Positions 16,096-31,458 of a stretch of 64,000 nucleotides of DNA are shown piece by piece. Below the pieces are notes generated by a model, which worked only from the letters and a program-made list of their open reading frames with translations, did not search any database and was not told where the DNA came from. How positions within the stretch are numbered: position 1 is the first letter of the stretch; each line of letters opens with the position of its first letter. This stretch comes from an uncultured Chloroflexia bacterium (GTDB taxonomy: Bacteria > Chloroflexota > Limnocylindria > QHBO01). Location of the stretch: assembly GCA_963825525.1 (NCBI GenBank), contig CAWGTN010000002.1, forward strand, positions 1,536,001-1,600,000, given 5' to 3'. The position numbers and the translations under genes were made by a program.

Positions 16096-17559
16096 TCAGA
16101 ATAGGCTCGACGCGGACACCTCGATCAGCTCCAGGACCCCGCCGGGGAAGAGGCCAAGGATGACCACCCCCGCCACCGAGAGCGCCAGTGCCACGGTGCC
16201 GAAGGGTGAGGTGTCGATGGGGGCGGGGTCGTCCTCCGGATCCCGCATGTACATGTAGACGATGACGCGAAGGTAGTAGAACGCGGCCATCGCGGCATTC
16301 AGGACGAGGATCACGGCAAGCCAGGCCAGCCCCGCGTCGACCGCCGCCAGCAGCACGTACAGCTTGGCGAAGAACCCGACCGTGGGTGGGATGCCGGTGA
16401 GGCTGAGCATGAGCACGCCCATCGCAGCGGCACGGGCCGGCGACCGCGACCCGAGGCCGGCGAACGAGTTCAGGCCGCCGAACCGCCGCGTGTCTCGCTG
16501 CAGCATGCCCACCACCGCGAAGGCGGCGATGTTCATCACCGCGTAGCCGAGGACGTAGAACAGCACCGACTCGATGCCCTGCGCGGCGGTCTCCGGGTCG
16601 GAGGCGTTGGCGAAGGCGGCCAGGCCCACCATGATGTAGCCGGTGTGGGCGATGCTCGAGTACGCCAGCATCCGCTTCACGTTGACCTGGGTGAGCGCGA
16701 CGACGTTCCCTACCGTCATCGTGAGCACGGTGAGCACCAGGAAGACGCCGATCCAGTCGGCGCGCAGCGGTGCGAGCGCCTCCGCGAAGACACGGACCAG
16801 GAGGGCAAAGGCCCCGAGCTTCGGGCCCACCGACAGGAATCCGGTGATCGGCGTCGGAGCGCCCTGGTAGGCATCCGGCGTCCAGTAGTGGAACGGGACC
16901 GCCGCGATCTTGAACGTGCCGCCCACGATGAGGAATCCGATGGCGATGAGCAGTGCGCCGCTCATGCGTCCCTCGAGGCCCGATGCCGCGATCTCCGCGA
17001 TGTTGGTGGTGCCGGTGAGCCCGTAGAGCCAGCTGATGCCGAACAGCACGATGGCGCTCGCGAAGCTTCCGAGCAGGAAGTACTTCAGCCCGCCCTCGTT
17101 GCTGTAGCGGTCCGTCTTGTGGAGGCCGGTGAGCAGGTAGGACGGCATCGTCATCAACTCGAGGCCAAGGAACAGGGTGATCAGGTCGGAGCTCGACGCG
17201 AGCACGAACATACCGAGCAGCGCGCTGAGCAGGATCATGTGGAACTCGCCCAGCGGGATCCTGCGCACGAGGAGGTAGGAGGGCGCGAACAGCACCGAGA
17301 TGACGCCGATGACCACCGTCGCCGCCTTGAAGAAGACGGACAGGTCGTCCACCACGTAGAAGCCGGCGTAGACGGTCTCGTTGACATCCCACACCACGAA
17401 CAGCGCGGCACCGACGAGGACGAGACCGGCCACCGTGAGCGGAGTGAGGATCCACTTGTCGGCACGCGCCAGGAACAGGTCGACCGTGATCACCGTGAGG
17501 ATGAGGACCACGAGCAGCAGCTCCGGCATGAGCGTGACGAGGTCGTCGATGTACGTCAT
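16096..17559 (-). CDS. nuoN: NADH-quinone oxidoreductase subunit N
   Basis: FKIAAVPFHYWTPDAYQGAP, KRMLAYSSIAHTGY, GIPPTVGFFAK. Confidence 0.95.
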   Translation of the reverse strand: MTYIDDLVTLMPELLLVVLILTVITVDLFLARADKWILTPLTVAGLVLVGAALFVVWDVNETVYAGFYVVDDLSVFFKAATVVIGVISVLFAPSYLLVRRIPLGEFHMILLSALLGMFVLASSSDLITLFLGLELMTMPSYLLTGLHKTDRYSNEGGLKYFLLGSFASAIVLFGISWLYGLTGTTNIAEIAASGLEGRMSGALLIAIGFLIVGGTFKIAAVPFHYWTPDAYQGAPTPITGFLSVGPKLGAFALLVRVFAEALAPLRADWIGVFLVLTVLTMTVGNVVALTQVNVKRMLAYSSIAHTGYIMVGLAAFANASDPETAAQGIESVLFYVLGYAVMNIAAFAVVGMLQRDTRRFGGLNSFAGLGSRSPARAAAMGVLMLSLTGIPPTVGFFAKLYVLLAAVDAGLAWLAVILVLNAAMAAFYYLRVIVYMYMRDPEDDPAPIDTSPFGTVALALSVAGVVILGLFPGGVLELIEVSASSLF

Positions 17560-17569
17560 GCGCAGCTCC

Positions 17570-19096
17570 TCACCACAGCGGCCCGAATGCGGTCAGGCCG
17601 GCACCACGGACTGCATCGAGGATCCGGTCGACCGGTGCCGCGATCAACTCGAGGACCGGCCCCGGATACACCCCGAGGGCCACGACCAGGATGATGAGGG
17701 GCGCCAGCGCGATCCATTCATTGCGATTGATGTCGCGCAGCGCCGGCCACGACTGGCGCATCCAGTCGGACGGCACGGTGAAGAAGACGCGCTGGAACAT
17801 CCACAGCATGTACACCGCGCTGATGATGACGACGATCATGGTCGCCGCGGCGATGAATCCATTGGCACGGAACGCCCCGAGAATCACGAGGAACTCCCCG
17901 ACGAACCCGGAAAGCCCGGGGAGCCCGATGCTGGCGAAGGTGAAGAGGCCGAACATCGCGGCATAGCGCGGGATACGGGCGTTGAGCCCGCCCATGTGGG
18001 CGATGAGCCGGTCATGGGTCTGCTCGTACAGGATCCCGACCAGCATGAACAGCGCGCCGGTGGTGATGCCGTGGCTGATCATCTGGTAGATCGCACCCTG
18101 CAGGCCCTGCTCGTTGAAGACGAACGCGCCGAGCATCACGAAGCCCATGTGACTGACGCTCGAGTACGCGACCAGCTTCTTCAGATCGGGCTGGACCATG
18201 GCGACCAGGCCGCCGTAGATGATGGCGATGATGGCGAGGCCGATGATGATCGGCGCGAAGCTGACGGCCGCGTCGGGCAGGAGCGGCAGGCTGAAGCGCA
18301 GGAACCCGTAGCCGCCGAGCTTCAGCATGACGCCGGCCAGGATGATCGAGCCGGCGGTCGGGGCCTCGACGTGCGCGTCGGGCAGCCAGGTGTGGAACGG
18401 CCACATCGGCACCTTGATCGCGAACGCCAGGAAGAAGGCGACGAAGGCCAGTGCCTGGAGCGTATCGGCGTAGGCGAATCCGCGGAGCGCCTCGTAGCTG
18501 AAGGTGAAGGGCTGGCCGCTTGCCGCGTGGGCGATGGCCACGGCCAGGATGGCGACGAGCATGAGCAGCGAGCCGACCAGGGTGTAGAGCACGAACTTCA
18601 CGGTGGCGTAGATGCGCCGTGGCCCGCCCCACACCCCGATGATCACGTACATCGGGAAGAGGCTGATCTCCCAGAAGACGTAGAACAGGAACATGTCGAG
18701 CGCCATGAAGACCCCGAGCATCCCGACCATCAGGAGCAGGAGCGCGATGTAGTACTCCTTGACCCGCTTCTGGATCGGCTCCCAGGAGTAGAAGAGGGCG
18801 ACCACGCTGAGGACGGTGGTCAGCAGCACCAGGACGACCGAGAGACCGTCCACGCCCAGCGTGTAGCGCATGCCGAAGGCCTCGATCCAGGGCAGGTCCT
18901 CCCTGAACTGGAACTCGGATGCCGCCGAGGAGGCGTCGTAGCCGAGCAGCACGAGCGAGAAGGCGAGGCTGGCCAGCGCCGCCCCGAGCGCCACCCAGCG
19001 GATGGCTCGGTGATTGGAGCTCGGAATCAGGAGGAGCAGCAGGACGCCGACGACCGGCATGAAGATGATGAGTGAGAGCACCGGCAGGCCTGTCAT
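17570..19096 (-). CDS. nuoM: NADH-quinone oxidoreductase subunit M
   Basis: LGVDGLS, FYVFWE, KVPMWPFHTWLPDAHVEAPTAGS, LPGLSGFVGE. Confidence 0.95.
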   Translation of the reverse strand: MTGLPVLSLIIFMPVVGVLLLLLIPSSNHRAIRWVALGAALASLAFSLVLLGYDASSAASEFQFREDLPWIEAFGMRYTLGVDGLSVVLVLLTTVLSVVALFYSWEPIQKRVKEYYIALLLLMVGMLGVFMALDMFLFYVFWEISLFPMYVIIGVWGGPRRIYATVKFVLYTLVGSLLMLVAILAVAIAHAASGQPFTFSYEALRGFAYADTLQALAFVAFFLAFAIKVPMWPFHTWLPDAHVEAPTAGSIILAGVMLKLGGYGFLRFSLPLLPDAAVSFAPIIIGLAIIAIIYGGLVAMVQPDLKKLVAYSSVSHMGFVMLGAFVFNEQGLQGAIYQMISHGITTGALFMLVGILYEQTHDRLIAHMGGLNARIPRYAAMFGLFTFASIGLPGLSGFVGEFLVILGAFRANGFIAAATMIVVIISAVYMLWMFQRVFFTVPSDWMRQSWPALRDINRNEWIALAPLIILVVALGVYPGPVLELIAAPVDRILDAVRGAGLTAFGPLW

Positions 19097-21288
19097 CAGC
19101 GCACCACCACCGCCAGCGCAACGAGCACGAGCACCAGGCCGGCGGCGATCCCCAGGCCATAGTTCTCGACTCGACCGGTCTGGACCTTCCGGAGCCCGCC
19201 GCCCACGGTCCGGGCCAGCCAACCGGCTCCGTTCACCGCGCCGTCGATGATCTTCACGTCGAACCACCACAGGGCGTTGCTGAGCAGGACGCCGCCGCGC
19301 GCCCAGACCAGCCCGTAGAGATCATCCACGTAGTACTTGTTCACGCTGGCCCGATACATCCCGGGCCCGAGGCCGAACGGGATGCGCTCCACGAAGCGCA
19401 CGGCCGACTCTGGTCGCTGCACGTACCAGCGATAGGCGAGCAGCACGCCGCCCACCGCGACCGCCGCCCCGATCAGCAGCAGCAGACCGCCGAGGCCGAA
19501 GAGCTCGAAGCCATGGTGCTCGCCATCCGCGATGGAACCGGCGAGGACCCCGGCATGCGACTCCTCGGCGGCATGGAAGATCTCCTCGAGCCAGCCGTGG
19601 ATCACGCCGCCCTCCGGCGGGATGCCGAGAATGAGACCCGCCAGGATGGTGGGCACGGCCAGGATCGCCAGCGGCGCGACCATGGTCGGGGCGCTCTCGT
19701 GGATGTGGTCCCAGGCCGCCTTCGGCCCGCGCCACTCGCCCCAGAACGTCATGAAGATCATGCGGAACGTGTAGAAGGCGGTCATGAAGGCGACGATGGT
19801 GCCCACGAGATAGAAGACGAGGTACCCGCGGTTGAAGGCCTCGGCCAGGATCTCGTCCTTGCTGAAGAAGCCGGAAAAGATCGGGATGCCGGCCAGCGCC
19901 AGCGAGCCGATGACCATGGTGATATAGGTCCAGCGCATCTTCGCCCGCAGGTTGCCCATGTAGCGCATGTCCTGCTCGCCGCCCGCCCCGTGGATGACGG
20001 AGCCCGAGCCCATGAACAGCAGGCCCTTGAAGAAGCCGTGGCTGACGAGATGGAAGATGGCGGCCACCCATGCGCCGATGCCGAGCGCGAAGAACATGTA
20101 CGCCAGCTGGCTGACGGTCGAGTAGGCCAGCACCTTCTTGATGTCGTTCTGGGTCAGGGCGATCGCCGCGGCAAAGATGGCGGTGAAGACGCCGATGATG
20201 GCCACCGTCCACATCGCGACCGGCGCCTCGGCAAAGATCGGGTTGGCGCGGGCGACCAGGTAGACCCCGGCGTTGACCATGGTCGCCGCGTGGATCAGCG
20301 CGCTGACCGGGGTGGGGCCCTCCATCGCGTCCGGCAGCCAGACGTGGAGCGGGAACTGGGCGCTCTTGCCCACGGCGCCGGCGAAGAGGAGCAGCGCGAT
20401 GACCGTGATCGTGGTCTCGTCGAGTGTCCCGATCCGCTCGAAGACCTCGTGGAAGCTCAGCGTCCCCAGGTTGACCCAGATCATCATGATGCCGAGCCCG
20501 AACCCGAAGTCGCCGACCCGGTTGACGATGAACGCCTTCTTGGCGGCCCCGGCGGCGGAGGGCTTCTTGTACCAGAAGCCGATCAGCGCGTAGCTGCACA
20601 GGCCGACGGCCTCCCAGCCGACGTAGAGCATCAGGAAGTTGTCGCCAAGGATCAGCAGCAGCATGCTGAACATGAAGAGGTTGAGGTAGGCGAAGAACCG
20701 CCAGAAGCCGCGGTCGCCGTCCATGTAGCCGATGGAATAGATGTGGACCAGGAATCCGACCGTGCTGACGACGAGCAGGAGCATGGCCGTCAGTGAGTCC
20801 ACCAGGAACGCGATCTCGATGGTGAAGTCGCCCGAGGCGATCCACTCGTAGATCGAGACCTCGTACTCGTTGCCACCGAACACGACGCTGGCGAACACGA
20901 TCATCGAGAAGACCCACATCAGGCCCACGACCGCGGTCGGCACGACCCACGATCGGTAGCGCGGCCGCTCGGCTCCCGGGGCCACGTGGCCGGCCTGGCC
21001 CAGGCCGTCGCTCATGTCGGACGGGATCACGCCATCGGCGCCCTCGGCGTTCGCAAGGTCATCGGCATGGCCGGCATGCGGGCTGGTGGCGCGCTGCTCT
21101 TCCTCGCTCGGGACCGGACGGAACGCAGAATCGTCGACCGCGTGGTCGTCGTGCGTCCCGTGCTCGGCATCGGCGTGTGCGTCGCCATGGCCGTGGCTCG
21201 GAACGCGGTCCAGCCTGGCTCCGGCGAGCACGGCGAACAGGAACCCGACCAGGGGCAGCGCGGGGATGAGGGCGATCAACAGCTCCAC
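19096..21288 (-). CDS. nuoL: NADH-quinone oxidoreductase subunit L, with His/acidic insertion after TM1
   Basis: GKSAQFPLHVWLPDAMEGPTPVSALIHAATMV, KKVLAYSTVSQL, HGFFKGLLF. Confidence 0.95.
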   Translation of the reverse strand: MELLIALIPALPLVGFLFAVLAGARLDRVPSHGHGDAHADAEHGTHDDHAVDDSAFRPVPSEEEQRATSPHAGHADDLANAEGADGVIPSDMSDGLGQAGHVAPGAERPRYRSWVVPTAVVGLMWVFSMIVFASVVFGGNEYEVSIYEWIASGDFTIEIAFLVDSLTAMLLLVVSTVGFLVHIYSIGYMDGDRGFWRFFAYLNLFMFSMLLLILGDNFLMLYVGWEAVGLCSYALIGFWYKKPSAAGAAKKAFIVNRVGDFGFGLGIMMIWVNLGTLSFHEVFERIGTLDETTITVIALLLFAGAVGKSAQFPLHVWLPDAMEGPTPVSALIHAATMVNAGVYLVARANPIFAEAPVAMWTVAIIGVFTAIFAAAIALTQNDIKKVLAYSTVSQLAYMFFALGIGAWVAAIFHLVSHGFFKGLLFMGSGSVIHGAGGEQDMRYMGNLRAKMRWTYITMVIGSLALAGIPIFSGFFSKDEILAEAFNRGYLVFYLVGTIVAFMTAFYTFRMIFMTFWGEWRGPKAAWDHIHESAPTMVAPLAILAVPTILAGLILGIPPEGGVIHGWLEEIFHAAEESHAGVLAGSIADGEHHGFELFGLGGLLLLIGAAVAVGGVLLAYRWYVQRPESAVRFVERIPFGLGPGMYRASVNKYYVDDLYGLVWARGGVLLSNALWWFDVKIIDGAVNGAGWLARTVGGGLRKVQTGRVENYGLGIAAGLVLVLVALAVVVR

Positions 21289-21298
21289 GGGTGTCTGC

Positions 21299-21604
21299 CT
21301 ACTCCTTCAGATCGGAGTACTGATCGACCTCGGCCGTCTGACGCGTCCGGATGATCGCAATCACCAACGCCAGGCCCACGGTCACCTCGGCTGCGGCGAC
21401 GGCCATGATCATGAGCGCGAAGACGGCGCCCGCATTCGAATCGGGTGGGAGGAAGGCGTTGAAGGCGACCAGGCTCAGGTTCACGGCGTTGAACATCAGC
21501 TCGATGCTGATGAGCATGAGGATCGCGTTGCGGCGGGCCATGAAGCCGAACGTCCCGATGCCGAACAGCATCACGGAGACGATGAGGTAGCCGGTGAGTC
21601 CCAT
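21299..21604 (-). CDS. nuoK: NADH-quinone oxidoreductase subunit K
   Basis: RRNAI..LISIELMFNAVN, AVAAAEVTVGLA. Confidence 0.95.
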   Translation of the reverse strand: MGLTGYLIVSVMLFGIGTFGFMARRNAILMLISIELMFNAVNLSLVAFNAFLPPDSNAGAVFALMIMAVAAAEVTVGLALVIAIIRTRQTAEVDQYSDLKE

Positions 21605-21606
21605 GC

Positions 21607-22116
21607 TCAGTTGGCCCGCTCGTCTTCTTCGGGACGTCGCGCCAGGTAGATGGCGCCGATGATGGCCACCAGGATCAGGAGGCTGATGATCTCGAACGGC
21701 AGCGCAAAGGTGGTGAACACCGCGTTGGCGATGGCGTCAACGGCCGCGGCGACCGGCTGCGGCAGCACGGACCAATCCGTCTGCACGACCGCCCATCCCA
21801 CGACGCCAATGAGGCCGAGCGCCACGACGGCCGCGATCGGAACCTGGCGGTGGAACGGTGCCGGCAGGTTCGCATCGCCAGCCTGGGTCAGCATGATGGC
21901 AAACAGGATGAGCACGCTGATCGCGCCCAGGTAGATGAGGACCTGGGCTGCCGCCACGATGGGGGCGCCGAGCAGCGCATACATCCCGGCCAGTGAGCCG
22001 AAGCAGATCATCATTGCCACGGCCGAATGGATGATGTTGCGCAGCGTCACCACGGCAATGCCGGCTCCCACAACGCCGATGGCGAGCAGGAAGAACAGGA
22101 CGCTGGAGATATCCAG
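21607..22116 (-). CDS. nuoJ: NADH-quinone oxidoreductase subunit J (probable CTG start)
   Basis: AAQVLIYLGAISVLILFAIML, LPFEIISLLIL; extension to CTG 22116 (9 nt after AGGAG) restores TM1 (DISSVLFFLLAIGVV). Confidence 0.9.
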   Translation of the reverse strand: MDISSVLFFLLAIGVVGAGIAVVTLRNIIHSAVAMMICFGSLAGMYALLGAPIVAAAQVLIYLGAISVLILFAIMLTQAGDANLPAPFHRQVPIAAVVALGLIGVVGWAVVQTDWSVLPQPVAAAVDAIANAVFTTFALPFEIISLLILVAIIGAIYLARRPEEDERAN

Positions 22117-22272: not shown

Positions 22273-22641
22273 ATGACGAGACGGACCGTTCCGGTACTCG
22301 CGGCGCTCGCGATCGCCCTGGCCGCATGCGGCGGCGGCGGCGGCGGAGGTGGCGCCAACGATGGCGCGGACAATCCGACCAAGGCCACGGTCGAGGCCGG
22401 TGCCGAGCGCGTTGCCTACCTGCTCGCCCCCGGACGGTACCGGATGACGATCAACGAGGACTGCGACGACTACACCATCGCGATCACCCAGGACGGCGGC
22501 GACTTCACGTACACCCTCGACAATTCGCCGATCCGTTTCGTCTTCGTGAACGACGTGCCGGCCGGCAGCTTCTTCATCGAGCAGACCAACGAGGCGTGCA
22601 CTGAGTGGAGCGTTGACCTCAGCAGAGTGAACGCCCCCTGA
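22273..22641 (+). CDS. Small lipoprotein, antisense within the nuo cluster
   Basis: MTRR + hydrophobic stretch + lipobox LAAC, poly-Gly linker, beta-rich domain with two Cys; SD GAGGT. Confidence 0.75.
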   Translation: MTRRTVPVLAALAIALAACGGGGGGGGANDGADNPTKATVEAGAERVAYLLAPGRYRMTINEDCDDYTIAITQDGGDFTYTLDNSPIRFVFVNDVPAGSFFIEQTNEACTEWSVDLSRVNAP

Positions 22642-22695: not shown

Positions 22696-22726
22696 GCGTC
22701 CGGCACGCCACACGAGTGCCGGACGC
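22696..22726. terminator. 11-bp stem-loop between convergent genes
   Basis: GCGTCCGGCAC-N9-GTGCCGGACGC. Confidence 0.5.
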
Positions 22727-22739
22727 TTCCCACGTCGGT

Positions 22740-25136
22740 CTAGCGGGTGGGGCGCTCCCGGTCGGACATCTCGAGAATGTCGAGCATCGGCAGGTCGCGC
22801 TGGTACTCGCTGAACTCGAACTCGGGGCCGCATCGCAGCGCGTCGTACGGACAGGCATCGGCGCAGATGCCACAGAAGATGCAGCGGCTGATATCGAGCT
22901 GGTAGGTCTCGAGGATGCGCGGGCGCGGCATGAGCGCGCCGACCGGGCAGGTCTCCGCGCATCGGCCACAGGAGACGCACGGCGTCTCGTTGAGTGACAC
23001 GAAGTCGGCGGTGGTGACCAGCGAGTCGAAGCCCTTGCCGATGAAGTCGTAGCAGCCGGCGCCCACGATCTCCTTGCAGACCTGGGCGCAGCGGCCGCAG
23101 TCGATGCAGCGGCTGTAGTCGCGCAGGATGAACGAATGCGTCTCGTCCCGGCCGTAGCCGTGGTTCACGCCGACGTACGGGTTGTCCTGGATCGAGCGCT
23201 CGTCGATCGCCATGTTCAGCGTCGTCTCGTACTCGATGGCCGCCTCGCGCAGGTCGCAGTGCCCGATCGCCTCGCAGGTGCACTGAAGGCATCGGCCCGC
23301 CTCGGCCATGGCCTGGTCGCCGGTGTAGCCGAACTCGTACTCGTTGAAGTTCGTGCGGCGCTCGTCGGCCTCCTGCTTGCCCATGATGGCGCGTGGTTCC
23401 TTCACGTCGTCGGTGAAGGGCACGATGGTCAGGAAGTTCGGCTGCGGCTCGGTGACGATGCGGCGCACCTGCGGGTCGTCGAGGTCATGGCCGCGCAGCC
23501 AGTAGTCCATGGCGTAGCTGGCGCGGCGTCCCTCGCCGATCGCCTCGACCACGGTGGCGGCGCCGGTCCGAACGTCGCCGGAGGCGAAGATCTTCGGGAC
23601 ATTGGTGCGGAAGATGTGCTCCTCGGCGACCAACGTGCCGCGGCGCGAGACCTCGAGGCCGGCCCGAATCTCCTCCGGCTCGGACTCGATCCATGACAGC
23701 TCGGGTCCCTGGCCGATGGCGCCGAGGACGGTGTCGCACTCGACGATGAACTCGGTGCCGGGCATCGGCTCGGGCCGACGGCGGCCCTGCGCATCGGGCT
23801 CGCCCAGCTTCATGCGCTGGAACTCGACGCCGTTCACCTTGTCATCGGCGCCGGTCACGATCCGCGTCGGTGCGGCCTGGAAGATGACGCGCGCGCCCTC
23901 CTCGATCGCCTCGTGCACCTCGTCGGCGGCGGGCATGTCCTTGAGGTCGCGGCGATAGACGAGCGTGACCTCCGCCGCGCCCTGCCGGACGCTGGTCCGG
24001 GTGCAGTCGATGGCGGTGAAGCCGCCGCCGATGACCACGACCCTCGCATTCTTCAGGCGCGGGACGGGGACGCCGCGGGTCGAGTTGTAGAGGTTCTCGA
24101 GGGCGTTGACCGTCCCATCGGCCTCTTCGCCCGGGATGCCGAGCTCGTTCGGCTTGTAGCAGCCGATGCCGACGTAGATGGCGTCGTAGTCGTCGATGAT
24201 GTCGCCCAGGTGGAAGTCACGACCGAGGCGCATGTTCGGCTTGAAGGTCGCGCCCAGCTCCCACACGTGGTTGAGCTCGCGGTCCATCCAGCCCTTGGGC
24301 AGCCGGTACTGGGGGATGCCGTAGCGCAGCATGCCGCCCTGCTCCGGGTCGGCCTCGTAGACGTCGCACTGATGGCCGCGCAGCTGGAGGTAATAGGCCG
24401 CGGTCATGCCGGCCGGTCCGGCGCCGATGATCGCCACCTTGCGACCGGTGGGCGGATCCTTCGGCCACGGAATCGGGGCAGGGGCGTCCACTTCGAGCAC
24501 CCGGTCGGCGCAGTAGCGATGCGAGTCACGGATGGCGATGGCCGTGTCGACTTCCTCACGGCGGCAGTGCGTCTCGCACGGAGCGGGACACACGCGGCCG
24601 AGGATGGCGGGGAAGGGAAGGGAGCGCTTGAGGATGCGCGTCGCCTCTTCCCAGTTGCCCAGGGTGTTCTGCTTCAGGTAGCCCGGGATATCGACGCGGG
24701 TGGGGCACTTGAACTGGCACGGGGGAAGGCAGTAGGCGTCGTGGTCGCTGAAGATGAGCTCGAGGACCATGCGACGGTTCTCGATGACCCGCTCGGAGTG
24801 GGTGGTGATGACCATCCCCTCCTCGATGGTCGTTCCGCAGCTGATGGGTGTGTCGTCGCGACCCTCGACCTCGACCGCGCAGATGCGGCAGGCGCCGTAC
24901 GGCGCGAGCTTGGGCTCGTAGCACAGGGTCGGGACGTCGATCCCCAGCACGCGACAGGCCTGGAGGATGGTCTGTCCCTCCTCGACCTGGAGCTCCTTGC
25001 CGTTGATGGTGACGCCGATCTCGCGCGTCCCGGGCACCATCGGCCAGATCGGGGTGTAATCGGCACTCGGGCCGTCACCCGCGCTGCCGTTGCCTGCCCC
25101 GTGGCCGTTCGTTCCGTTCGTCGTTCCGAAGCCCAT
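22740..25136 (-). CDS. NuoG-N-terminal Fe-S / GltD-like FAD-NAD(P)H oxidoreductase / NuoI C-half fusion
   Basis: 2Fe-2S motif CYEP..GACRIC..SC; PPCQFKCP and GRVCPAPCETHC; IIGAGPAG; GGGFTAIDC..YRR; RCLQCTC..HCDL; two CxxCxxCxxxC motifs; C-terminal YQLDISRCIFCGICADACPYDALRCGPEFE. Confidence 0.9.
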   Translation of the reverse strand: MGFGTTNGTNGHGAGNGSAGDGPSADYTPIWPMVPGTREIGVTINGKELQVEEGQTILQACRVLGIDVPTLCYEPKLAPYGACRICAVEVEGRDDTPISCGTTIEEGMVITTHSERVIENRRMVLELIFSDHDAYCLPPCQFKCPTRVDIPGYLKQNTLGNWEEATRILKRSLPFPAILGRVCPAPCETHCRREEVDTAIAIRDSHRYCADRVLEVDAPAPIPWPKDPPTGRKVAIIGAGPAGMTAAYYLQLRGHQCDVYEADPEQGGMLRYGIPQYRLPKGWMDRELNHVWELGATFKPNMRLGRDFHLGDIIDDYDAIYVGIGCYKPNELGIPGEEADGTVNALENLYNSTRGVPVPRLKNARVVVIGGGFTAIDCTRTSVRQGAAEVTLVYRRDLKDMPAADEVHEAIEEGARVIFQAAPTRIVTGADDKVNGVEFQRMKLGEPDAQGRRRPEPMPGTEFIVECDTVLGAIGQGPELSWIESEPEEIRAGLEVSRRGTLVAEEHIFRTNVPKIFASGDVRTGAATVVEAIGEGRRASYAMDYWLRGHDLDDPQVRRIVTEPQPNFLTIVPFTDDVKEPRAIMGKQEADERRTNFNEYEFGYTGDQAMAEAGRCLQCTCEAIGHCDLREAAIEYETTLNMAIDERSIQDNPYVGVNHGYGRDETHSFILRDYSRCIDCGRCAQVCKEIVGAGCYDFIGKGFDSLVTTADFVSLNETPCVSCGRCAETCPVGALMPRPRILETYQLDISRCIFCGICADACPYDALRCGPEFEFSEYQRDLPMLDILEMSDRERPTR

Positions 25137-25156
25137 CGTGTCCTATCGTAGCGAGG

Positions 25157-26521
25157 CTAAGCGCCCGCCGCCGGATCGACTCCGGCAAGAGGCTCGAGAA
25201 GAGGGTGGACGCCGTCGGTGCGGCAGGCGCCGGCCAGGCATTCGCCGCGTTCCGCGTGCGCCCGGTACTCATCGGTGAATCGATCGAGGGTGGTGAGGAT
25301 CGGTCCCGATGCGAGCCGCTCCAGCTTGCAGAGCGCCGTGTCGCTCACCTTGCGCGACAGCTCGCGCAGGAGGTTGAAGTCGTTCGGCCGCGGCGTGGCT
25401 GCGAGGATGCGATCCATGGTCTCGACCAGGCGCTTCGTGCCGATCCGGCACGGGACCGCCTTGCCGCATGCCTCCCGCGCGTTGAAGTCGATGAAGAATC
25501 GGGCGGTGTCGACCATGCAGGTGGCGCTGTCGGTGACGAGCACCGATCCGGAGCCGATGATGGCGCCCGCTTCCTCGAGCGACTCGTAGTCGAACGGCAT
25601 GTTGAGCGAGCCGGCGTCGATGGCCCCACCACCCGGACCGCCGACAAACAGCGCCTTGGTGGTGCCGGTCCCGCCGCCCGCCATTCCGAGCAGGTCGATG
25701 AGCGGTGTTCCCAGCGGCACCTCGACGAGGCCCGGGGTGCCGACGCGGCCCATGATCGTGACGAGCTTGGTGCCGTGGCTGCCTTCGCTCCCAACCGACG
25801 CGAACGCATCCGGCGAGTGGGCCATGATCCATGCCACATGCGCCAGCGTCTCGCCGTTCTGGACGACGGTCGGGGCGCCGTTCAGCCCCTTCTGGGCCGG
25901 GTACGGTGGCCTGATGAGCGGCATGCCGCGGTCGCCGGAGAGGGCGTTGATGAGCGCCGTCTCCTCGCCCGCCACGTAGGCGCCGGAGCCCTCCCACACG
26001 CTGAGCTGGACGCTGGTGTCCGTGCCCAGCACGAGGTAGCCACCCAGGTGCGCATCGGTCGCCTCCGCGATGGCGGCTTGAAGGCGCTCGATGGCGACGG
26101 TCCAGTCACGCCGCACGGCGATGATCGCCTCGCTGGCGCCGGCCGCATACGCCGCAATGACGAGTCCCTCGACGATCAGATGTGGGTTGCCCTCGGCCAG
26201 GGCGCGGTCGCCGAGTGCGCTGGGATCTGCCGCCATGAGGTTGGCGACCACCACCCTGCGATCTCCCGGGGCATCACGCGCGACCCGCCACTTCGCCGCG
26301 GTCGGGAACCCCGATCCGCCGCGACCGCGAAGTCCCGCCGCCTCGATGTCACGAATGACCTCCTCGGGCGCCAGCTTGGTGATGGCGCGCTCGAGTCCGG
26401 CGTACCCGCCGTGCTCGCGGTAGCTCGCGAGGCTGCCCGGGTCAACACGGCCGATGTCGGTCAGGAGACGCGGCTCTCCCTCGGTGAGGATCCGGATCTG
26501 TGGCGAGAGGGTGCCGGTCAT
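25157..26521 (-). CDS. nuoF: NuoF/HydB-like flavoprotein subunit, divergent
   Basis: GLRGRGGSGFPT..KW, GAYVAGEETAL, PPYPA..GL.G.PT; NADEGEPG replaced by NLMAADPS; N3 motif reads CGKAVPC..C. Confidence 0.85.
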   Translation of the reverse strand: MTGTLSPQIRILTEGEPRLLTDIGRVDPGSLASYREHGGYAGLERAITKLAPEEVIRDIEAAGLRGRGGSGFPTAAKWRVARDAPGDRRVVVANLMAADPSALGDRALAEGNPHLIVEGLVIAAYAAGASEAIIAVRRDWTVAIERLQAAIAEATDAHLGGYLVLGTDTSVQLSVWEGSGAYVAGEETALINALSGDRGMPLIRPPYPAQKGLNGAPTVVQNGETLAHVAWIMAHSPDAFASVGSEGSHGTKLVTIMGRVGTPGLVEVPLGTPLIDLLGMAGGGTGTTKALFVGGPGGGAIDAGSLNMPFDYESLEEAGAIIGSGSVLVTDSATCMVDTARFFIDFNAREACGKAVPCRIGTKRLVETMDRILAATPRPNDFNLLRELSRKVSDTALCKLERLASGPILTTLDRFTDEYRAHAERGECLAGACRTDGVHPLLEPLAGVDPAAGA

Positions 26522-27354
26522 GCTCGGTCACGACCCCCGGCCGGCGCGGCCGCCCGGCGCTCACCGACGATGTGCAGGGCCTTCTCTTCGTCGAGCGGGC
26601 CGTACACGAGGGTATCGATCCGCATGGCCGGGCTCAGCGCCCCGGCGCCGACGTCGGGTCGTGTCTCGAGCGAGAACCGGCCGTCTGCCGTCGTCTCGCC
26701 GGGCCGGATGCCGAGCTCCCGTTCGATCGCCGAGAGCAGGCGATCGCCGCCGGCGAACCGACAGGAGGCGCAGTCGCACACCGTCACCAGGTGGCCACTG
26801 GCCGGCAGCAGGCGGAATCCACCGAGTCCGGCGGCACCGAAGACCTGGGCCCAATGGATCGTCATTCGGTCGCTGATCCGGCGCAGTGCCCGCTCCGGGA
26901 GATAGCCATATCGCTCCTCGATGGCGCGGAAGATGGCAACCAGCGCCTCGGGGCGTCCGCCGAACCCGTCAATGACCTGGTCCACGAACGGCGTGTCGAT
27001 CGCCTCGTCCCAGCGCGCCGCGTTTCGCATCGGTTTGGCCTCCAGACCGGCACGTCGATAGGCGTTGGGATCCTTGCGCTCGTCATAGATCTCCGGCATG
27101 CCGTAGCGGATCCGGTTGCCGGTCGAGTCGAACCCGCTCATGTCGATGGCCTCGACCGGACAGACCTGGGCGCACTGGAAGCACACCTCGCACTTGTGCT
27201 CCCCGAACGGGTCGTAGATCAGGTCGAGACGGCCGCGCCAGCGATCGGGGATCTCGGGGCGCTGCTCCGGATACTGCCGCGTCACCTTCGGCGCGAAGAA
27301 GTTCCGCAGGGTCGTCGCCATGCCCTTCGCGATGCCGGAGCCGGGAAATGCCAT
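26518..27354 (-). CDS. NuoI N-half / NuoE-like fusion protein
   Basis: GMATTLRNFF..KVTRQYPE...RWRGR...CEVCFQCAQVCPVEAI (first NuoI half), then NuoE-like YGYLPE, VTVCDCASC, GETTADGRFSLE; SD AGGAGG. Confidence 0.85.
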   Translation of the reverse strand: MAFPGSGIAKGMATTLRNFFAPKVTRQYPEQRPEIPDRWRGRLDLIYDPFGEHKCEVCFQCAQVCPVEAIDMSGFDSTGNRIRYGMPEIYDERKDPNAYRRAGLEAKPMRNAARWDEAIDTPFVDQVIDGFGGRPEALVAIFRAIEERYGYLPERALRRISDRMTIHWAQVFGAAGLGGFRLLPASGHLVTVCDCASCRFAGGDRLLSAIERELGIRPGETTADGRFSLETRPDVGAGALSPAMRIDTLVYGPLDEEKALHIVGERRAAAPAGGRDRA

Positions 27355-27366
27355 GGGTTCGCCCTC

Positions 27367-28377
27367 CTACAGGTCGAAGACGACCACGGCGATGGCCGTG
27401 ATGAACAGGTTGACGAGGGCGAGAGGCAACAGGACCTTCCACGCCATGCCCATGAGCTGATCCACGCGCATGCGGGGCAGGGTGGCGCGCAGCCAGACCG
27501 CGATGGACACGAAGATGTAGGTCTTGAGGAAGAACCAGAAGATGCCATAGAGGGTGCCGCCGAATCCATCGAGCTGTGCCGGGAACGGCCAGGGCGCCAG
27601 CCAGCCGCCGAAGAAGAGGCTGACCAGGATGCCGCTCATGATGAACAGCGCGACGTACTCGGCGAAGAAGAAGAACCCGAAGCGCATCCCCGAGTACTCG
27701 GTGAAGGGGCCGGCCACCAGCTCCGAGTCTGCCTCGACCATATCGAACGGGGTCCGGTTCACCTCCGCCAATGAGCTGATGTAGAAGATGCCGAGGCCGA
27801 CCGGTTGCCACACCAGGAGCCAGCCATGGTCCCGCTGCCAGGCGATGAGCTCGCTGAAGTTCAGCGTGCCGGCCAGGACCACCGCCCCCACGATCGAGAG
27901 GGTGAGCGGAATCTCGTAGCTCACCATCTGGGCCGCCGCGCGCAGCCCGCCGAGGAGCGAGTACTTGTTGTAGCTCGCCCAGCCGGCCACGAGGAGCCCC
28001 ACAACCGAGAGGCCGAGCACCGCGAAGAAGTAGACGATGCCGATGTTGAAGTCGGCGGCGACGGCACCCGGCGCGAACGGGATCACGAGCATGCTCATCG
28101 CCGCGGCCATGTAGACCATCCACGGCGCGAGGGTGAACGTCCCGCGGTCCGCCTGGTCGGGCACCGTGTCCTCCTTGGCGAGGACCTTGAACCCGTGGAT
28201 CGTGCTCTGGAAGATGCCGCGCGGACCGATGCGGTTCGGTCCGAAGCGCAGGTTCATCTGGGCGATGATCTTCATCTCCATCTGGATGATGACGAACGCC
28301 GTCGGAACGGTGAGCAGCAGCAGCAGCGTCGTCGCCAGGATGAATCGGCCGAGGCCGAGAAGCAGCTCGAAGTCCAT
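27367..28377 (-). CDS. nuoH: NADH-quinone oxidoreductase subunit H
   Basis: RFGPNRIGP, NKYSLLGGLRAAAQMVSYE, NRTPFD..EADSELVAG..TEYSG, RATLPRMRVDQL. Confidence 0.95.
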   Translation of the reverse strand: MDFELLLGLGRFILATTLLLLLTVPTAFVIIQMEMKIIAQMNLRFGPNRIGPRGIFQSTIHGFKVLAKEDTVPDQADRGTFTLAPWMVYMAAAMSMLVIPFAPGAVAADFNIGIVYFFAVLGLSVVGLLVAGWASYNKYSLLGGLRAAAQMVSYEIPLTLSIVGAVVLAGTLNFSELIAWQRDHGWLLVWQPVGLGIFYISSLAEVNRTPFDMVEADSELVAGPFTEYSGMRFGFFFFAEYVALFIMSGILVSLFFGGWLAPWPFPAQLDGFGGTLYGIFWFFLKTYIFVSIAVWLRATLPRMRVDQLMGMAWKVLLPLALVNLFITAIAVVVFDL

Positions 28378-28380
28378 CGG

Positions 28381-29664
28381 CTACTTGTCCACGCCGCCCA
28401 TGACCGGGTCGAGGCTGGCCATCACCGCCATGGTGTCGGCGACCAGCCGGCCCGGCATGAGCTTCGGCAGTGCCTGGAGGCTGATGAAGCTGGGATCGCG
28501 CATCCGGAAGCGGTACGGGTTCGGGCCTCCGTCGCTGATGGCATAGACGCTGTACAGGCCGCGTGGCGACTCGACCGCGCCGTACGCGCGGCCCGGCCGT
28601 GGACGGATGATGCCGGGGACCTGGGCCTGCACCGCCCCGTGGGGCATCTTGTCGATGATCTGGTCGATGAGGTGGATGCTCTGCTTGATCTCGGCGATGC
28701 GCTGCAGGTAGCGGGAGTAGGAATCTCCGCCCTCCTGGGTGATGACGTCGAACTCGAGCTCGTTGTAGATCGAGTAGGGCTTCGCCTTGCGGACATCGAA
28801 GGGGACGCCGGATGCTCGCAGGTTCGGACCGGTGACGCCGAGACTGATGGCCTCCTGGCCGGTGAGCGTGCCCATGTTGATCGTCCGTGCTCGGAAGATC
28901 TCGTTCTCGGTGATCATGTGCTCGTTCATCTCGATGTTCTTCATGACGTTGCCGCGCCACGTGCCGAGACGGCTGAGGAACTCGTCGTTGGTGTCGAAGT
29001 TCACGCCACCCACGCGGAAGAAGTTGAAGAGCATGCGCTGGCCGCTGATGGCCGACAGCATGTCGACGATCTCGTCGCGATTGATGAACGCGTAAAGGAT
29101 CGGGGTGATGCCGCCCATGTCGAGCGCCAGGAAGCCCATCATCAGCCCGTGGCTGAAGATGCGATTCAGCTCCACGACCAGTGCGCGGATGTACTCGGCG
29201 CGCGGCGGTGCCTTGATGCCGTACAGCTTCTCGAACGCGATGGCCGGTGCATGCTCGTTGTGCATGGTCGACAGGTAGTCCATGGGGTCCACGTAGGTGA
29301 GAACGGTGGTGTACGTCGCGTTCTCGCACAGCTTCTCGATGCCGCGATGGAGGTAGCCAAGGACGGGGTCGATGTCGACGATGATCTCGCCGCGAACCTT
29401 GACCACCAGCCGCATCACGCCGTGGGTCGACGGGTGCTGCGGCCCCATGTTCACGAGCATCTCCCCCTCGTCCAGGGTGTAGACCTCGCGCTCCCGTTCC
29501 GTCTGGGGTGGTCGATCCGGGATCCCGACCTGGTCGAAGCCCGCGTACTCGCCCGCACTCGTTCGGACCGGCGTCAGGCCGGCGACCGCGCGGAGGCGTT
29601 CCTCTTCGAGCCGATCCAGCTCGATCGGGTCGGGGATTCGCGTCTCCGGATCCACGCTCGTCAT
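28381..29664 (-). CDS. nuoD: NADH-quinone oxidoreductase subunit D
   Basis: NMGPQHPSTHGVMRL, GYLHRGIEK, GPNLRASG, ESPRG, SLDPVMGGVDK. Confidence 0.95.
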   Translation of the reverse strand: MTSVDPETRIPDPIELDRLEEERLRAVAGLTPVRTSAGEYAGFDQVGIPDRPPQTEREREVYTLDEGEMLVNMGPQHPSTHGVMRLVVKVRGEIIVDIDPVLGYLHRGIEKLCENATYTTVLTYVDPMDYLSTMHNEHAPAIAFEKLYGIKAPPRAEYIRALVVELNRIFSHGLMMGFLALDMGGITPILYAFINRDEIVDMLSAISGQRMLFNFFRVGGVNFDTNDEFLSRLGTWRGNVMKNIEMNEHMITENEIFRARTINMGTLTGQEAISLGVTGPNLRASGVPFDVRKAKPYSIYNELEFDVITQEGGDSYSRYLQRIAEIKQSIHLIDQIIDKMPHGAVQAQVPGIIRPRPGRAYGAVESPRGLYSVYAISDGGPNPYRFRMRDPSFISLQALPKLMPGRLVADTMAVMASLDPVMGGVDK

Positions 29665-30254
29665 CGCGCGCCGCTCCCGTTGGAATCCGTTGGCGCTTCC
29701 GTCGCGCCCGGCGTGTCGCGGTAGCGGGAGAGGTCCCAGGTCGCGGGCCGCTCGAGCGGGTTCACGCCAGCGGCGGGAGAGTCGGCCGCGTCATCCGGCA
29801 GAAGAAAGTCACGACGCTGCGGAAAGGAGCGGTAGTCGGGGCTCATGTAGATGCGCCGAAGGTCGCGATTGCCGTCGAAGATGATGCCCATCATGTCGTA
29901 CATCTCGCGCTCGTGGAACATCGCCCCCTCCCACAGGTCGGTGATGGTGGGGATGCGCGGATCATCGCGGTCCACGTCGGCACGGATGCGGAGCCAGCCG
30001 GGATGCTTCCAGCTGAACAGGTGGTACACCACCTCGAAGCGCTCCCCGAGTCCGTAGTCGACCGCCGCGGCGTCGGCAAGCATGAAGAAGTCGAGATCGT
30101 CATCGTCGCGCAGGGTCTTGAGGACGTCATGGGCACGGGGCGCACTGACCCGGTACTCGACGGTGTCCTCGTCGGTCCACAGGTCGCGAAGGTCGTCACC
30201 GAGACGCTCGGCCAGCGCCCGGACGAGCGCGCCGGCCGCGGCGGACGTGGTCAG
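29661..30254 (-). CDS. nuoC: NADH-quinone oxidoreductase subunit C (probable CTG start)
   Basis: [38 protein letters not shown]; CTGA overlap with nuoB stop and SD GAAGGAG 7 nt upstream. Confidence 0.9.
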
Positions 30255-30910
30255 CGGACGTCTCCTTCCCAGTTGGTTCGCTGCGGGCCTCGATCCACGT
30301 ACGTGCTCCACTGGCCTCGGCGCTGCTTGACCAGCTCGTGCAGCTTCATCATTCCGTAGATCAGGCCCTCGGGGCGCGGTGGGCAGCCCGGCACGTACAC
30401 GTCGACCGGCATGACCCGATCCACGCCCTGGACCACGCTGTACGAACGCTTGAAACGGCCACCGGATGTCGTGCAGGTGCCCATGGCCACGCACCACTTG
30501 GGCTCGGGCATCTGCTCCCACAGCCGGACGAGCGGCCCGGCCATCTTCGTGGTCAGCGTGCCGGCCACGATCAACACGTCCGCCTGCCGTGGGCTGGCGC
30601 GGAACGGGAACATCCCGAATCGGTCGATGTCGTTCACGCTCGTGGCCGTGCTCATCATCTCGATGGCGCAGCAGCTGAGCCCCGACAGCAACGGCCAGAG
30701 CGAGTTGGCTCGAATGAGGTCGAGGATGTAGTCGGCCTTGGTCGGGATGACCTCGAGCAGGCCGTGGAATCCGCCCTGCGGATGCTCCTCCATCCCGAAC
30801 TCGCGCAGCAGGTCGCTGTCCGCGGCCTGGTCGGGAATGACGATCGGTCCGTTGCCGGGGGTCGACATCAGTTCGGTCGAGCTCCCGGTTGTTGGTCGGT
30901 CTACTGCCAT
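30251..30910 (-). CDS. nuoB: NADH-quinone oxidoreductase subunit B
   Basis: [44 protein letters not shown]. Confidence 0.95.
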
Positions 30911-31260
30911 CGCAGGTCCCCCTTCTTCCACGCGTACAGCTCACCGAACATGAGGATGGCCAGGAAGATGCCGATCAGGACGATCCCCTGGAACTCGAGC
31001 GACCGCACGGTGATCGCCCACAGGTATACGAAGATGATCTCCACGTCGAAGGCCACGAACAGCAGGGCGTATAGGTAAAAGGCAAGTCCGAATCGGCTCC
31101 AGGTGTCGCCGATCGTGTCCACCCCGGACTCGTACGGCAGGCCCTTCTGGGGACGCCGGCGCCGATGGGTGATCAGCCAGCTGAACAGGATCGTGCCGAA
31201 GACGAAGGTCGTCGCGGCAAACGCGAATCCGATGACGTAGAGCAGTCCGGTGTGATCCAT
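30901..31260 (-). CDS. nuoA: NADH-quinone oxidoreductase subunit A
   Basis: [31 protein letters not shown]. Confidence 0.95.
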
Positions 31261-31458
31261 CTCCACTCCGGTTGCACGCGGTGCAGTTGCGTGTCGGGCA
31301 GCGGCCCGACGCTGAGGTTCGTCGTTGGTGGAGCGGTGCGGCGCTGCGTGCACGGCCCGCTCGTTTCACAGTCTAGCAGGGGCGTTCCGCCTCGTGGCCG
31401 CACCGTTCTCGACCATTCCCGCGGTGCGCACCGATATTTCGCCGATAGTTCTGCCGGA

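Follow-up and report, generated by a model that had tools for sequence, protein, structure and literature searches.

Complex I is usually taught as an enzyme of 14 conserved core subunits, with an input through flavin mononucleotide (FMN) and reduced nicotinamide adenine dinucleotide (NADH). The nuo operon described here raises the question of how such an enzyme is put together when one of its iron-sulfur subunits, NuoI, has no gene of its own at the locus. The operon lies on the minus strand of the window, by which we mean the whole 64,000-nucleotide stretch of DNA that was analysed (assembly GCA_963825525.1, contig CAWGTN010000002.1, positions 1,536,001 to 1,600,000; G+C content of 65 to 73%), from a soil bacterium of Ca. 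Limnocylindria (Chloroflexota), a class assigned by database labels. No stand-alone nuoI was found among the open reading frames (ORFs) between nuoH and nuoJ, as a first-pass annotation of the sequence had noted and as the ORF map and the Pfam matches of the flanking genes bear out. Read along the minus strand, the genes are nuoA, nuoB, nuoC, nuoD and nuoH, then one that fuses the N-terminal half of NuoI to a NuoE-like domain, a NuoF-like gene, one in which 2Fe-2S, GltD-type and further Fe-S regions are followed by the C-terminal half of NuoI, a gap of 0.67 kb, and nuoJ, nuoK, nuoL, nuoM and nuoN. This split-NuoI architecture is real, class-wide and conserved. We consider it reasonably probable that the operon encodes a proton-pumping complex I (NDH-1) with an input module from a Stn/NfnABC-type complex of the Bfu family, whose genes lie inside nuoI, that the split NuoI joins the two modules, and that NADH or its phosphorylated form NADPH (together NAD(P)H) enters at the flavin adenine dinucleotide (FAD) of the GltD-type domain.

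NuoI divided between two subunits

The halves were identified with the NCBIfam NuoI model TIGR01971, which has 121 positions and a curated cut-off of 113.05 bits. In the 278-residue fusion protein (26518..27354; all coordinates are on the minus strand unless stated otherwise), residues 11 to 83 match profile positions 1 to 72 with an E value of 4.7e-15, and the N-half delimited as residues 1 to 84 (27103..27354; profile positions 1 to 72 or 73, 55 to 58 bits) comprises an N-terminal helix and the first CxxCxxCxxxCP motif. The remainder of the family is found at the end of the 798-residue large subunit (22740..25136), where residues 740 to 781 match positions 71 to 112 (E value of 5e-15, or 9.9e-14 when scanned alone); this C-half, residues 740 to 798 with the stop codon counted (22740..22919), contains the second CxxCxxCxxxCP motif and the NuoI C-terminal signature. 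Searched in isolation, the first 100 residues of the shorter protein scored 58.4 bits against TIGR01971, and their top six families were all NuoI models. The last 68 residues of the longer one scored 51.0 bits and had NuoI models as all of their top seven, while the generic ferredoxin family FdxA_fam reached only an E value of 7.4e-6 on this tail. Each half is below the cut-off applied to a single polypeptide, and their summed score (109.4 bits) is near it; the NuoI motifs and terminal segments are present in trans, with profile positions 1 to 73 on one protein and 71 to 112 on the other. These profile coordinates, together with the NuoI-only top families, indicate that both ends are NuoI specific and tile the family at one breakpoint. 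The first-pass annotation had proposed both fusions and had expected that the two ends would tile TIGR01971 and that the C-terminal motif would fit NuoI better than generic ferredoxins, all of which proved correct. Tiling was judged by profile coordinates; a MAFFT alignment (A5) with the intact NuoI of the same genome (see below) stacked both half-motifs on the second motif of that protein.

Beyond the N-half, the 278-residue protein continues through a linker (residues 85 to 124, 26983..27102), with Y90 and R93 invariant in an alignment of 45 rows (A3), into a NuoE/BfuC-like thioredoxin-type domain with an incomplete 2Fe-2S site (26518..26982; PF01257 at residues 125 to 264, E value of 2.9e-25). 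Gene order and the single tiling breakpoint support an in-frame insertion of the three-gene cassette into the loop of nuoI between its two motifs, as the annotation had suggested.

While each NuoI half has one CxxCxxCxxxCP motif, the large subunit has three ferredoxin motifs in all, A at residue 677, B at 720 and C at 752, the last of them inside the NuoI C-half. Motifs A and B align to the ferredoxin region of StnC itself, and motif C is left without a partner within its own chain. Since A and B pair as a StnC-like unit, the N-half motif on the NuoE-like protein would be the natural partner of motif C. Pairing of B with C was also considered. It was rejected, as A and B together form one unit in the alignment to StnC/HydA-type domains and the N-half motif would then be the one without a partner. 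Conservation is strict at both sites: the N-half cysteines (55, 58, 61 and 65) are kept in 49 of 49 sequences and those of the C-half are invariant in an alignment of 45 rows (A4), the C-half being 95 to 99% identical within the family.

Distribution of the architecture and the surrounding operon

The fusion protein had 575 matches in protein databases, the best 120 with 80 to 90% identity over 95 to 100% of its length; several were labelled Candidatus Limnocylindria or Chloroflexi, and some soil metagenome. It was full length in 23 of the 24 other genomes of the genus (a count that includes the unpublished G006), the remaining genome being 63% complete, and both NuoI halves were present in 48 of 48 related loci, which provides the matching fusions in relatives that the first-pass annotation had called for. 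Contigs from a different study span positions 23779 to 27400 and 22700 to 23705, and a contig from yet another study spans 22777 to 23477, so that both junctions, across which the annotation had asked for reads to be checked, are bridged. Misassembly or frameshifts producing false fusions might be suspected in a genome where a nuo operon with frame breaks lies near a contig end (see below), but these fusions recur across hundreds of independent assemblies, and with the bridging contigs such an artefact has a negligible probability; for misassembly at the junctions, the danger that the annotation itself had named, relatives and independent contigs together exclude it.

Sampling of 401 genomes from the phylum (including the unpublished G180 and G372) placed all of the listed matches that start at query residues 1 to 3 in families f1, f3 and f4 of the window's class, with a match in 16 of 16, 23 of 23 and 4 of 4 genomes, respectively. 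Among the matches listed outside the class, the start was at residue 51 or later, i.e., in or just before the NuoE part; there were 207 further matches beyond those listed. Families f3 and f4 have the same full operon at their loci. In family f2, the genes are divided over two loci, one with nuoB, nuoD and the three module genes in the same order, fusions included, and another with nuoA/nuoC, nuoH and nuoJ to nuoN, where nuoH is directly followed by nuoJ. The idea that NuoD and NuoB of f2 belong to a hydrogenase was rejected, given their 46 to 64% identity to nuoD/nuoB of the window and the membrane genes at the second locus.

Split halves are the sole NuoI in 58 of the 61 class genomes that are at least 90% complete. 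Only the genome of the window (G000), G436 and G039 have a NuoI over the cut-off, and among the other 58, G435 shows a single half match and the rest N-half and C-half matches. The fusion protein is automatically annotated merely as ‘NADH-quinone oxidoreductase subunit E’, so that genome-based metabolic reconstructions may score these organisms as having no NuoI. Contigs from RNA libraries (X15 and X17) showed about 90 to 92% identity on the NuoI N-half and large-subunit regions and hardly any on the E and F parts; this pattern tracks the conservation among relatives and shows neither expression of the operon nor silence of E and F.

The intact nuoI of the window's genome is thus an exception in the class. 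It is located outside the window, at G000:C2:11608-11994 (144.5 bits, the only full NuoI match in the genome), within a second, canonical nuoA-N operon (G000:C2, approximately 3 to 18 kb) that has several frame breaks, with nuoF over two frames, nuoD in four pieces and nuoB in two. As only 3 of the 61 class genomes have an intact NuoI, the second operon may have been acquired recently and be decaying, or it may reflect poor polishing at the end of a contig. The first-pass annotation had regarded an intact nuoI elsewhere, combined with a lack of fusions in relatives, as fatal to its proposal; the intact gene does exist, but the fusions are abundant.

The window encodes the complex I (NDH-1) core together, with Pfam matches for A, B, C, D, H, J, K, L, M and N. 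Upstream of the module are nuoA (30901..31353, start uncertain; PF00507 at residues 53 to 149, E value of 1.4e-29), nuoB (30251..30931; PF01058, 2.6e-28), with 63 to 78% identity to its orthologues in loci L015 to L022, nuoC (29661..30260, start approximate; PF00329, 8.1e-37), nuoD (28381..29664; PF00346, 2e-83; TIGR01962, 346.8 bits) and nuoH (27367..28377; PF00146, 1e-109). Downstream are nuoJ (21607..22071, with a true start probably further upstream; PF00499, 5.8e-34), nuoK (21299..21604; PF00420, 1.8e-25), nuoL (19096..21288; PF00361 and PF00662), nuoM (17570..19096, start approximate; PF00361, 9.3e-76) and nuoN (16096..17559; PF00361, 1.3e-72). NuoL has a His/Asp-rich stretch of about 100 residues after its first hydrophobic segment (residues ~25 to 145); its Pfam N-terminal domain begins only at residue 149, and orthologues from other families align from residue ~110 to 145. 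A plus-strand ORF of 122 residues (22273..22641), with a lipoprotein-like signal sequence and no Pfam family, is not part of the complex, and homologues were found at the same position in three loci of the genus (L106 to L108). Because this ORF sits between the module and nuoJ, nuoJ-N may be a separate transcription unit here.

The inserted module and its relatives in other lineages

For all three module proteins, the best solved relatives were chains A, B and C of 9bov, 8oh5 and 9n5u, the last deposited as NfnA/B/C, with best E values of 6.6e-168 for the large subunit, 9.3e-126 for F and 5.8e-23 for E. In the passages concerned of PMC10482914 and PMC11829005, these enzymes are the Stn/NfnABC transhydrogenases of the Bfu family. 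The large subunit (G′, ending in the NuoI C-half) has the domain order of an NfnABC/Stn-type BfuA, as indicated by the match of NF009454 to residues 39 to 690 and by the alignment of 9bov_A and 8oh5_C to residues 39 to 762 or 763. It starts with a 2Fe-2S domain (residues 38 to 114, 24795..25025; PF13510, 4.2e-20) with four conserved cysteines, followed by an inserted FAD/NAD(P)H domain of GltD type that has two 4Fe-4S sites of its own (residues ~137 to 550, 23487..24728; PF14691 and PF07992; NF009454, 5.6e-164; 4ylf_B, 4.6e-88). A NuoG/HydA-type cluster region comes next (residues ~615 to 735, 22932..23294; aligned to 9bov_A and 8oh5_C up to chain residue ~672), with a Cys-rich stretch and then motifs A and B, and motif C is last. 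Homology to StnC fades at chain residue ~683, the start of the FdhF-like domain that is described as inactive in the relevant part of PMC10482914. The window protein has the NuoI C-half at this point and no FdhF-like C-terminal domain, ending at 798 residues against the 1172 of StnC. The first-pass annotation had called the module E-F-G type; the E- and F-like parts are there, but the module is of Stn/NfnABC (Bfu) type with a GltD-FAD domain rather than a classical NuoEFG, and its large subunit is no NuoG bearing a molybdopterin-like domain. Outside the window, at G000:C2:1641599-1643425, the genome encodes a paralogue of this subunit (33% identity over residues 136 to 748) that also has ferredoxin motifs weakly matching NuoI.

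The NuoF/BfuB-like protein (454 residues, 25157..26521; PF01512 and PF10589; best PDB matches 9bov_B, 8oh5_B and 9n5u_B) is encoded by an ORF whose start overlaps the stop of the 278-residue ORF by 4 nucleotides. It has the FMN, SLBB and 4Fe-4S domains of NuoF, residues 17 to 436 aligning to PDB chain residues ~104 to 526; the cluster domains that BfuB has at its N and C termini are missing, and there is no Fer4 domain.

Cofactor sites were compared by alignment column in the window and 48 other genomes. In the NuoE-like domain, the second cysteine pair is complete in none of the 49, so that the C1 2Fe-2S site of BfuC is incomplete throughout, and the first pair is also absent in f2 and in about half of f3. 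At four loci (L021, L022 and, from f2, L019 and L020), the NuoE-like domain is truncated or without all four cysteines, and the NuoI N-half and linker stay conserved. In the solved relatives and two further lineages, the FMN loop of the NuoF-like protein has the sequence N(A/G)DEGDPG; every member of the class has lost its D-E. The second cysteine of the N3/B1 site is Ala in 18 of 18 f1 sequences, Thr or Ser in 16 of 17 from f3 and 3 of 3 from f4, and Cys in 11 of 11 from f2. The window's protein therefore departs from BfuB in three features, the missing B3/B4 ferredoxin domain, the alanine at the second B1/N3 position and the altered FMN loop. According to the passages concerned of PMC11829005, bifurcation in Bfu enzymes takes place at B1-FMN-C1, and B3/B4 is the ferredoxin site; by these alignments, both sites are impaired or absent in the window's module. 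G′ is intact, with conservation of the 2Fe-2S and GltD Fe-S cysteines, the FAD glycine motif and an NAD(P)H motif followed by YRR, and it is 57 to 59% identical to its f3/f4 orthologues, compared with 40 to 46% for F and 37 to 46% for the NuoI-NuoE fusion. The module looks like a reduced form of one that was originally of bifurcating type.

A sister lineage, represented mostly by metagenome contigs (query P0144; 1095 database proteins at an E value of 1e-30 or less, one labelled Thermoleophilia), has what appears to be the unreduced state. All seven long loci examined of the 80 returned (L145, L163, L167, L177, L190, L206 and L223) hold the identical operon, from nuoA to nuoN with both fusions in place, and the NuoI breakpoint is the same as in the window. 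Here the FMN loop is canonical (NADEGDPG) in six of seven sequences, all four N3 cysteines are present, F carries a C-terminal 2x[4Fe-4S] domain, and the NuoE part has all four cysteines and passes the NuoE equivalog cut-off. In L223, the frames of F and the large subunit appear fused into one ORF of 1334 residues.

A related cluster of three genes was also found standing by itself in 79 loci (among them L083, L025, L038, L057, L064 and L079) from metagenome-assembled genomes (MAGs) labelled Thermoleophilia, Gaiellales or Actinomycetota, with no nuo genes nearby. Both half-motifs again score best against NuoI models, and the first ~22 profile positions are absent. By eye, the end of the large subunit beyond motif C resembles the thiamine pyrophosphate (TPP)-binding beta-like domain of 2-oxoacid:ferredoxin oxidoreductases, and the cluster would apparently be a 2-oxoacid oxidoreductase joined to the same module via NuoI-derived half-ferredoxins. 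These stand-alone relatives, with their NuoI-like halves, lend some plausibility to the notion that the window's module is a separate soluble NAD(P)H oxidoreductase merely located within a nuo cluster, its NuoI-like ends forming a private ferredoxin that does not dock on NuoB, NuoD or NuoH. We consider this improbable, since the complex would then be without NuoI in 58 of 61 genomes, the N-half of the window keeps the NuoI-specific N terminus (profile positions 1 to 22) that the stand-alone form lacks, and the module of f2 is encoded directly behind nuoB-nuoD. The pair of half-motifs, one on E and the other on G′, travels as a unit through three contexts, which supports the idea that the halves work together. 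The direction of change suggested here is tentative, and either complex I or the stand-alone enzyme may have come first.

Proposed electron path and comparison with known systems

In the mechanism that we propose, the electron-input module would descend from a Stn/NfnABC-type flavoprotein complex with its three genes inside nuoI, the NuoI C-half having replaced the inactive FdhF-like domain of StnC at the C terminus of the large subunit. The two halves would fold together into one 2x[4Fe-4S] NuoI domain, in which clusters N6a and N6b would each be ligated by three cysteines of one chain and a single cysteine of its partner. Through this domain, the clusters of the large subunit would be wired to N2, the cluster carried by NuoB in known complex I, and the module would be anchored on the Q-module; the membrane-proximal N-terminal helix would presumably dock on NuoH, NuoB and NuoD together with the NuoI-specific segments, as happens in solved complex I structures. 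NAD(P)H would be oxidised at the FAD of the GltD domain, with NADPH as the most likely form, and electrons could then pass through the two GltD 4Fe-4S clusters and the NuoG-type clusters to the split NuoI (N6a/N6b), N2 and quinone. N6a would receive them from the motif A/B clusters, located ~15 residues upstream in the same chain, and the NuoE- and NuoF-like parts would mostly be structural relics of a once bifurcating core. Entry at the GltD FAD is favored because the GltD domain is intact, the FMN/B1/C1 side is degraded, and the Stn complex owes its NADPH:methyl-viologen activity to StnC alone (PMC10482914, in the passage concerned). An NADPH-taking complex I would also be physiologically possible in this organism, as the genome encodes PntB and an NDH-2-like protein.

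Prediction of a complex between the two halves with four 4Fe-4S clusters gave a median ipSAE of 0.49, against 0.00 for the best of three controls; the runs agreed in at least 84% of contacts, with a partner pLDDT of at least 50. In the calibration, made without custom alignments or riding ligands, 58 of 80 solved complexes reached the mark, as did 2 of 110 mismatched pairs, and scores of 0.60 or less were seen in only 7 of the 80 and in both mismatches. Because NuoI structures are already solved, this pass could stem from the predictor having memorised the family. The prediction thus weakly supports an assembly of N6a and N6b across two chains.

Several observations weigh against this reading. 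The canonical nuo operon with intact nuoI is present in the same genome, even if its nuoB, nuoD and nuoF are broken, and the opposite-strand ORF separates the module from nuoJ-N, so that co-transcription of the whole set is not assured. The trans-assembly of N6a/N6b, for which the complex prediction is weak, and the point of electron entry are both proposals, and the choice of NADPH over NADH at the GltD site rests on a reading of the YRR motif. The CxxAxxC pattern left at N3 could hold a 3Fe-4S cluster. In addition, none of the 49 genomes examined has lost the NuoF-like gene; its product has a glycine-rich loop, a GEET stretch and three invariant N3 cysteines, and on these grounds may still bind FMN and oxidise NADH. 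The last point is the core of another explanation, a dual-input or still-bifurcating complex I that would take both NADH and NADPH or act as a quinone-linked transhydrogenase, the changes in E and F only tuning their sites. The large subunit's conserved 2Fe-2S cluster, the route to the B subunit in Bfu enzymes (PMC11829005, in the passage concerned), would fit it, as would the sister lineage, where the same operon keeps NADEGDPG, the four N3 cysteines, the C-terminal 2x[4Fe-4S] domain and the four E cysteines. However, 18 of 18 sequences of the window's family have substitutions at both acidic positions of the FMN loop and at one N3 ligand, none of the 49 sequences has a complete cluster site in E, BfuB's ferredoxin-reducing C-terminal domain is missing, and the bifurcation site as given in that part of PMC11829005 has both B1 and C1 impaired here; we therefore judge a dual input unlikely, though not as improbable as a separate soluble enzyme. 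With entry at the GltD FAD preferred, a fuller scenario can be put forward tentatively, at somewhat less than even confidence: a NuoI built from two polypeptides, its N6a/N6b joining the Q-module to an NfnABC-type flavoprotein, in the only complex I of the class, which would have decayed from a confurcating input of NADH and ferredoxin (with or without NADPH), intact in the sister lineage, to an NADPH-fed, FAD-dependent one.

Should the clusters be shared by two chains, the split NuoI would be a natural experiment on the joining of N- and Q-modules. The class is abundant in soils and fresh water, and for most of its members the split-NuoI enzyme is the only complex I. If electrons enter at the GltD FAD, the operon would encode a respiratory complex I that draws on NADPH. 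In the sister lineage, whose Bfu core is intact, the enzyme would be a candidate confurcating complex I linked to quinone. To our knowledge, the known input-module variants (Fpo, NDH-1 and Nuo-Bfu) leave NuoI as one protein. No description of a split NuoI or of a Limnocylindria complex I turned up in the literature searched, which excluded supplements and most subscription journals, and the passages concerned of Moparthi and Hägerhäll 2011 do not mention a split NuoI; a class-wide split-NuoI complex I is apparently undescribed in print. The word NuoI is absent from the main text of the Nuo-Bfu paper (Schut et al. 2022, PMC9304861), and its supplementary table and figures could list such clusters.

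Nuo-Bfu, as described in that main text, comprises 14 subunits (A-N) and was proposed for Deferribacteres, Proteobacteria, Planctomycetes and Nitrospirae. Like the enzyme of the window, it is a quinone oxidoreductase resembling complex I; a Bfu-type ABC module, with its genes in the middle of the nuo cluster, stands in for NuoEFG as the electron input (PMC9304861). The window's operon departs from this main-text description of BfuABC in the place of NuoEFG with a separate NuoI: the module genes sit between nuoH and nuoJ, their products are fused to the two NuoI halves and include a GltD-FAD domain, and the window's lineage lacks the B3/B4 domain and the C1 site. A complex I with an alternative, Bfu-derived input was thus already known, whereas the split Fe-S subunit and the likely FAD/NADPH entry would be surprising to specialists. 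StnABC/NfnABC (8oh5, 9bov and 9n5u) are closest in all three subunits and share the order of 2Fe-2S, GltD and NuoG-type clusters. In contrast, those enzymes are soluble, bifurcating and ferredoxin reducing, StnC ends in an inactive FdhF-like domain (PMC10482914 and PMC11829005, in the passages concerned), and the extra cluster domains of StnB are absent from the window's F. Canonical NuoI/Nqo9/TYKY differs in being one polypeptide, while here each half is under the 113.05-bit cut-off, although the halves jointly cover positions 1 to 112 of TIGR01971 and supply both CxxCxxCxxxCP motifs. Finally, in mbx-like operons, as presented in the passages concerned of Degli Esposti 2015 (PMC4758237), the place of NuoI is taken by a GltD-related flavoprotein, in an enzyme that reduces NAD(P)+. 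The likeness is in a GltD-type NAD(P)(H) site on a complex-I-like Q/P module; unlike those complexes, the operon of the window keeps NuoI in split form, and its core is a true nuo set with NuoD-type ends.

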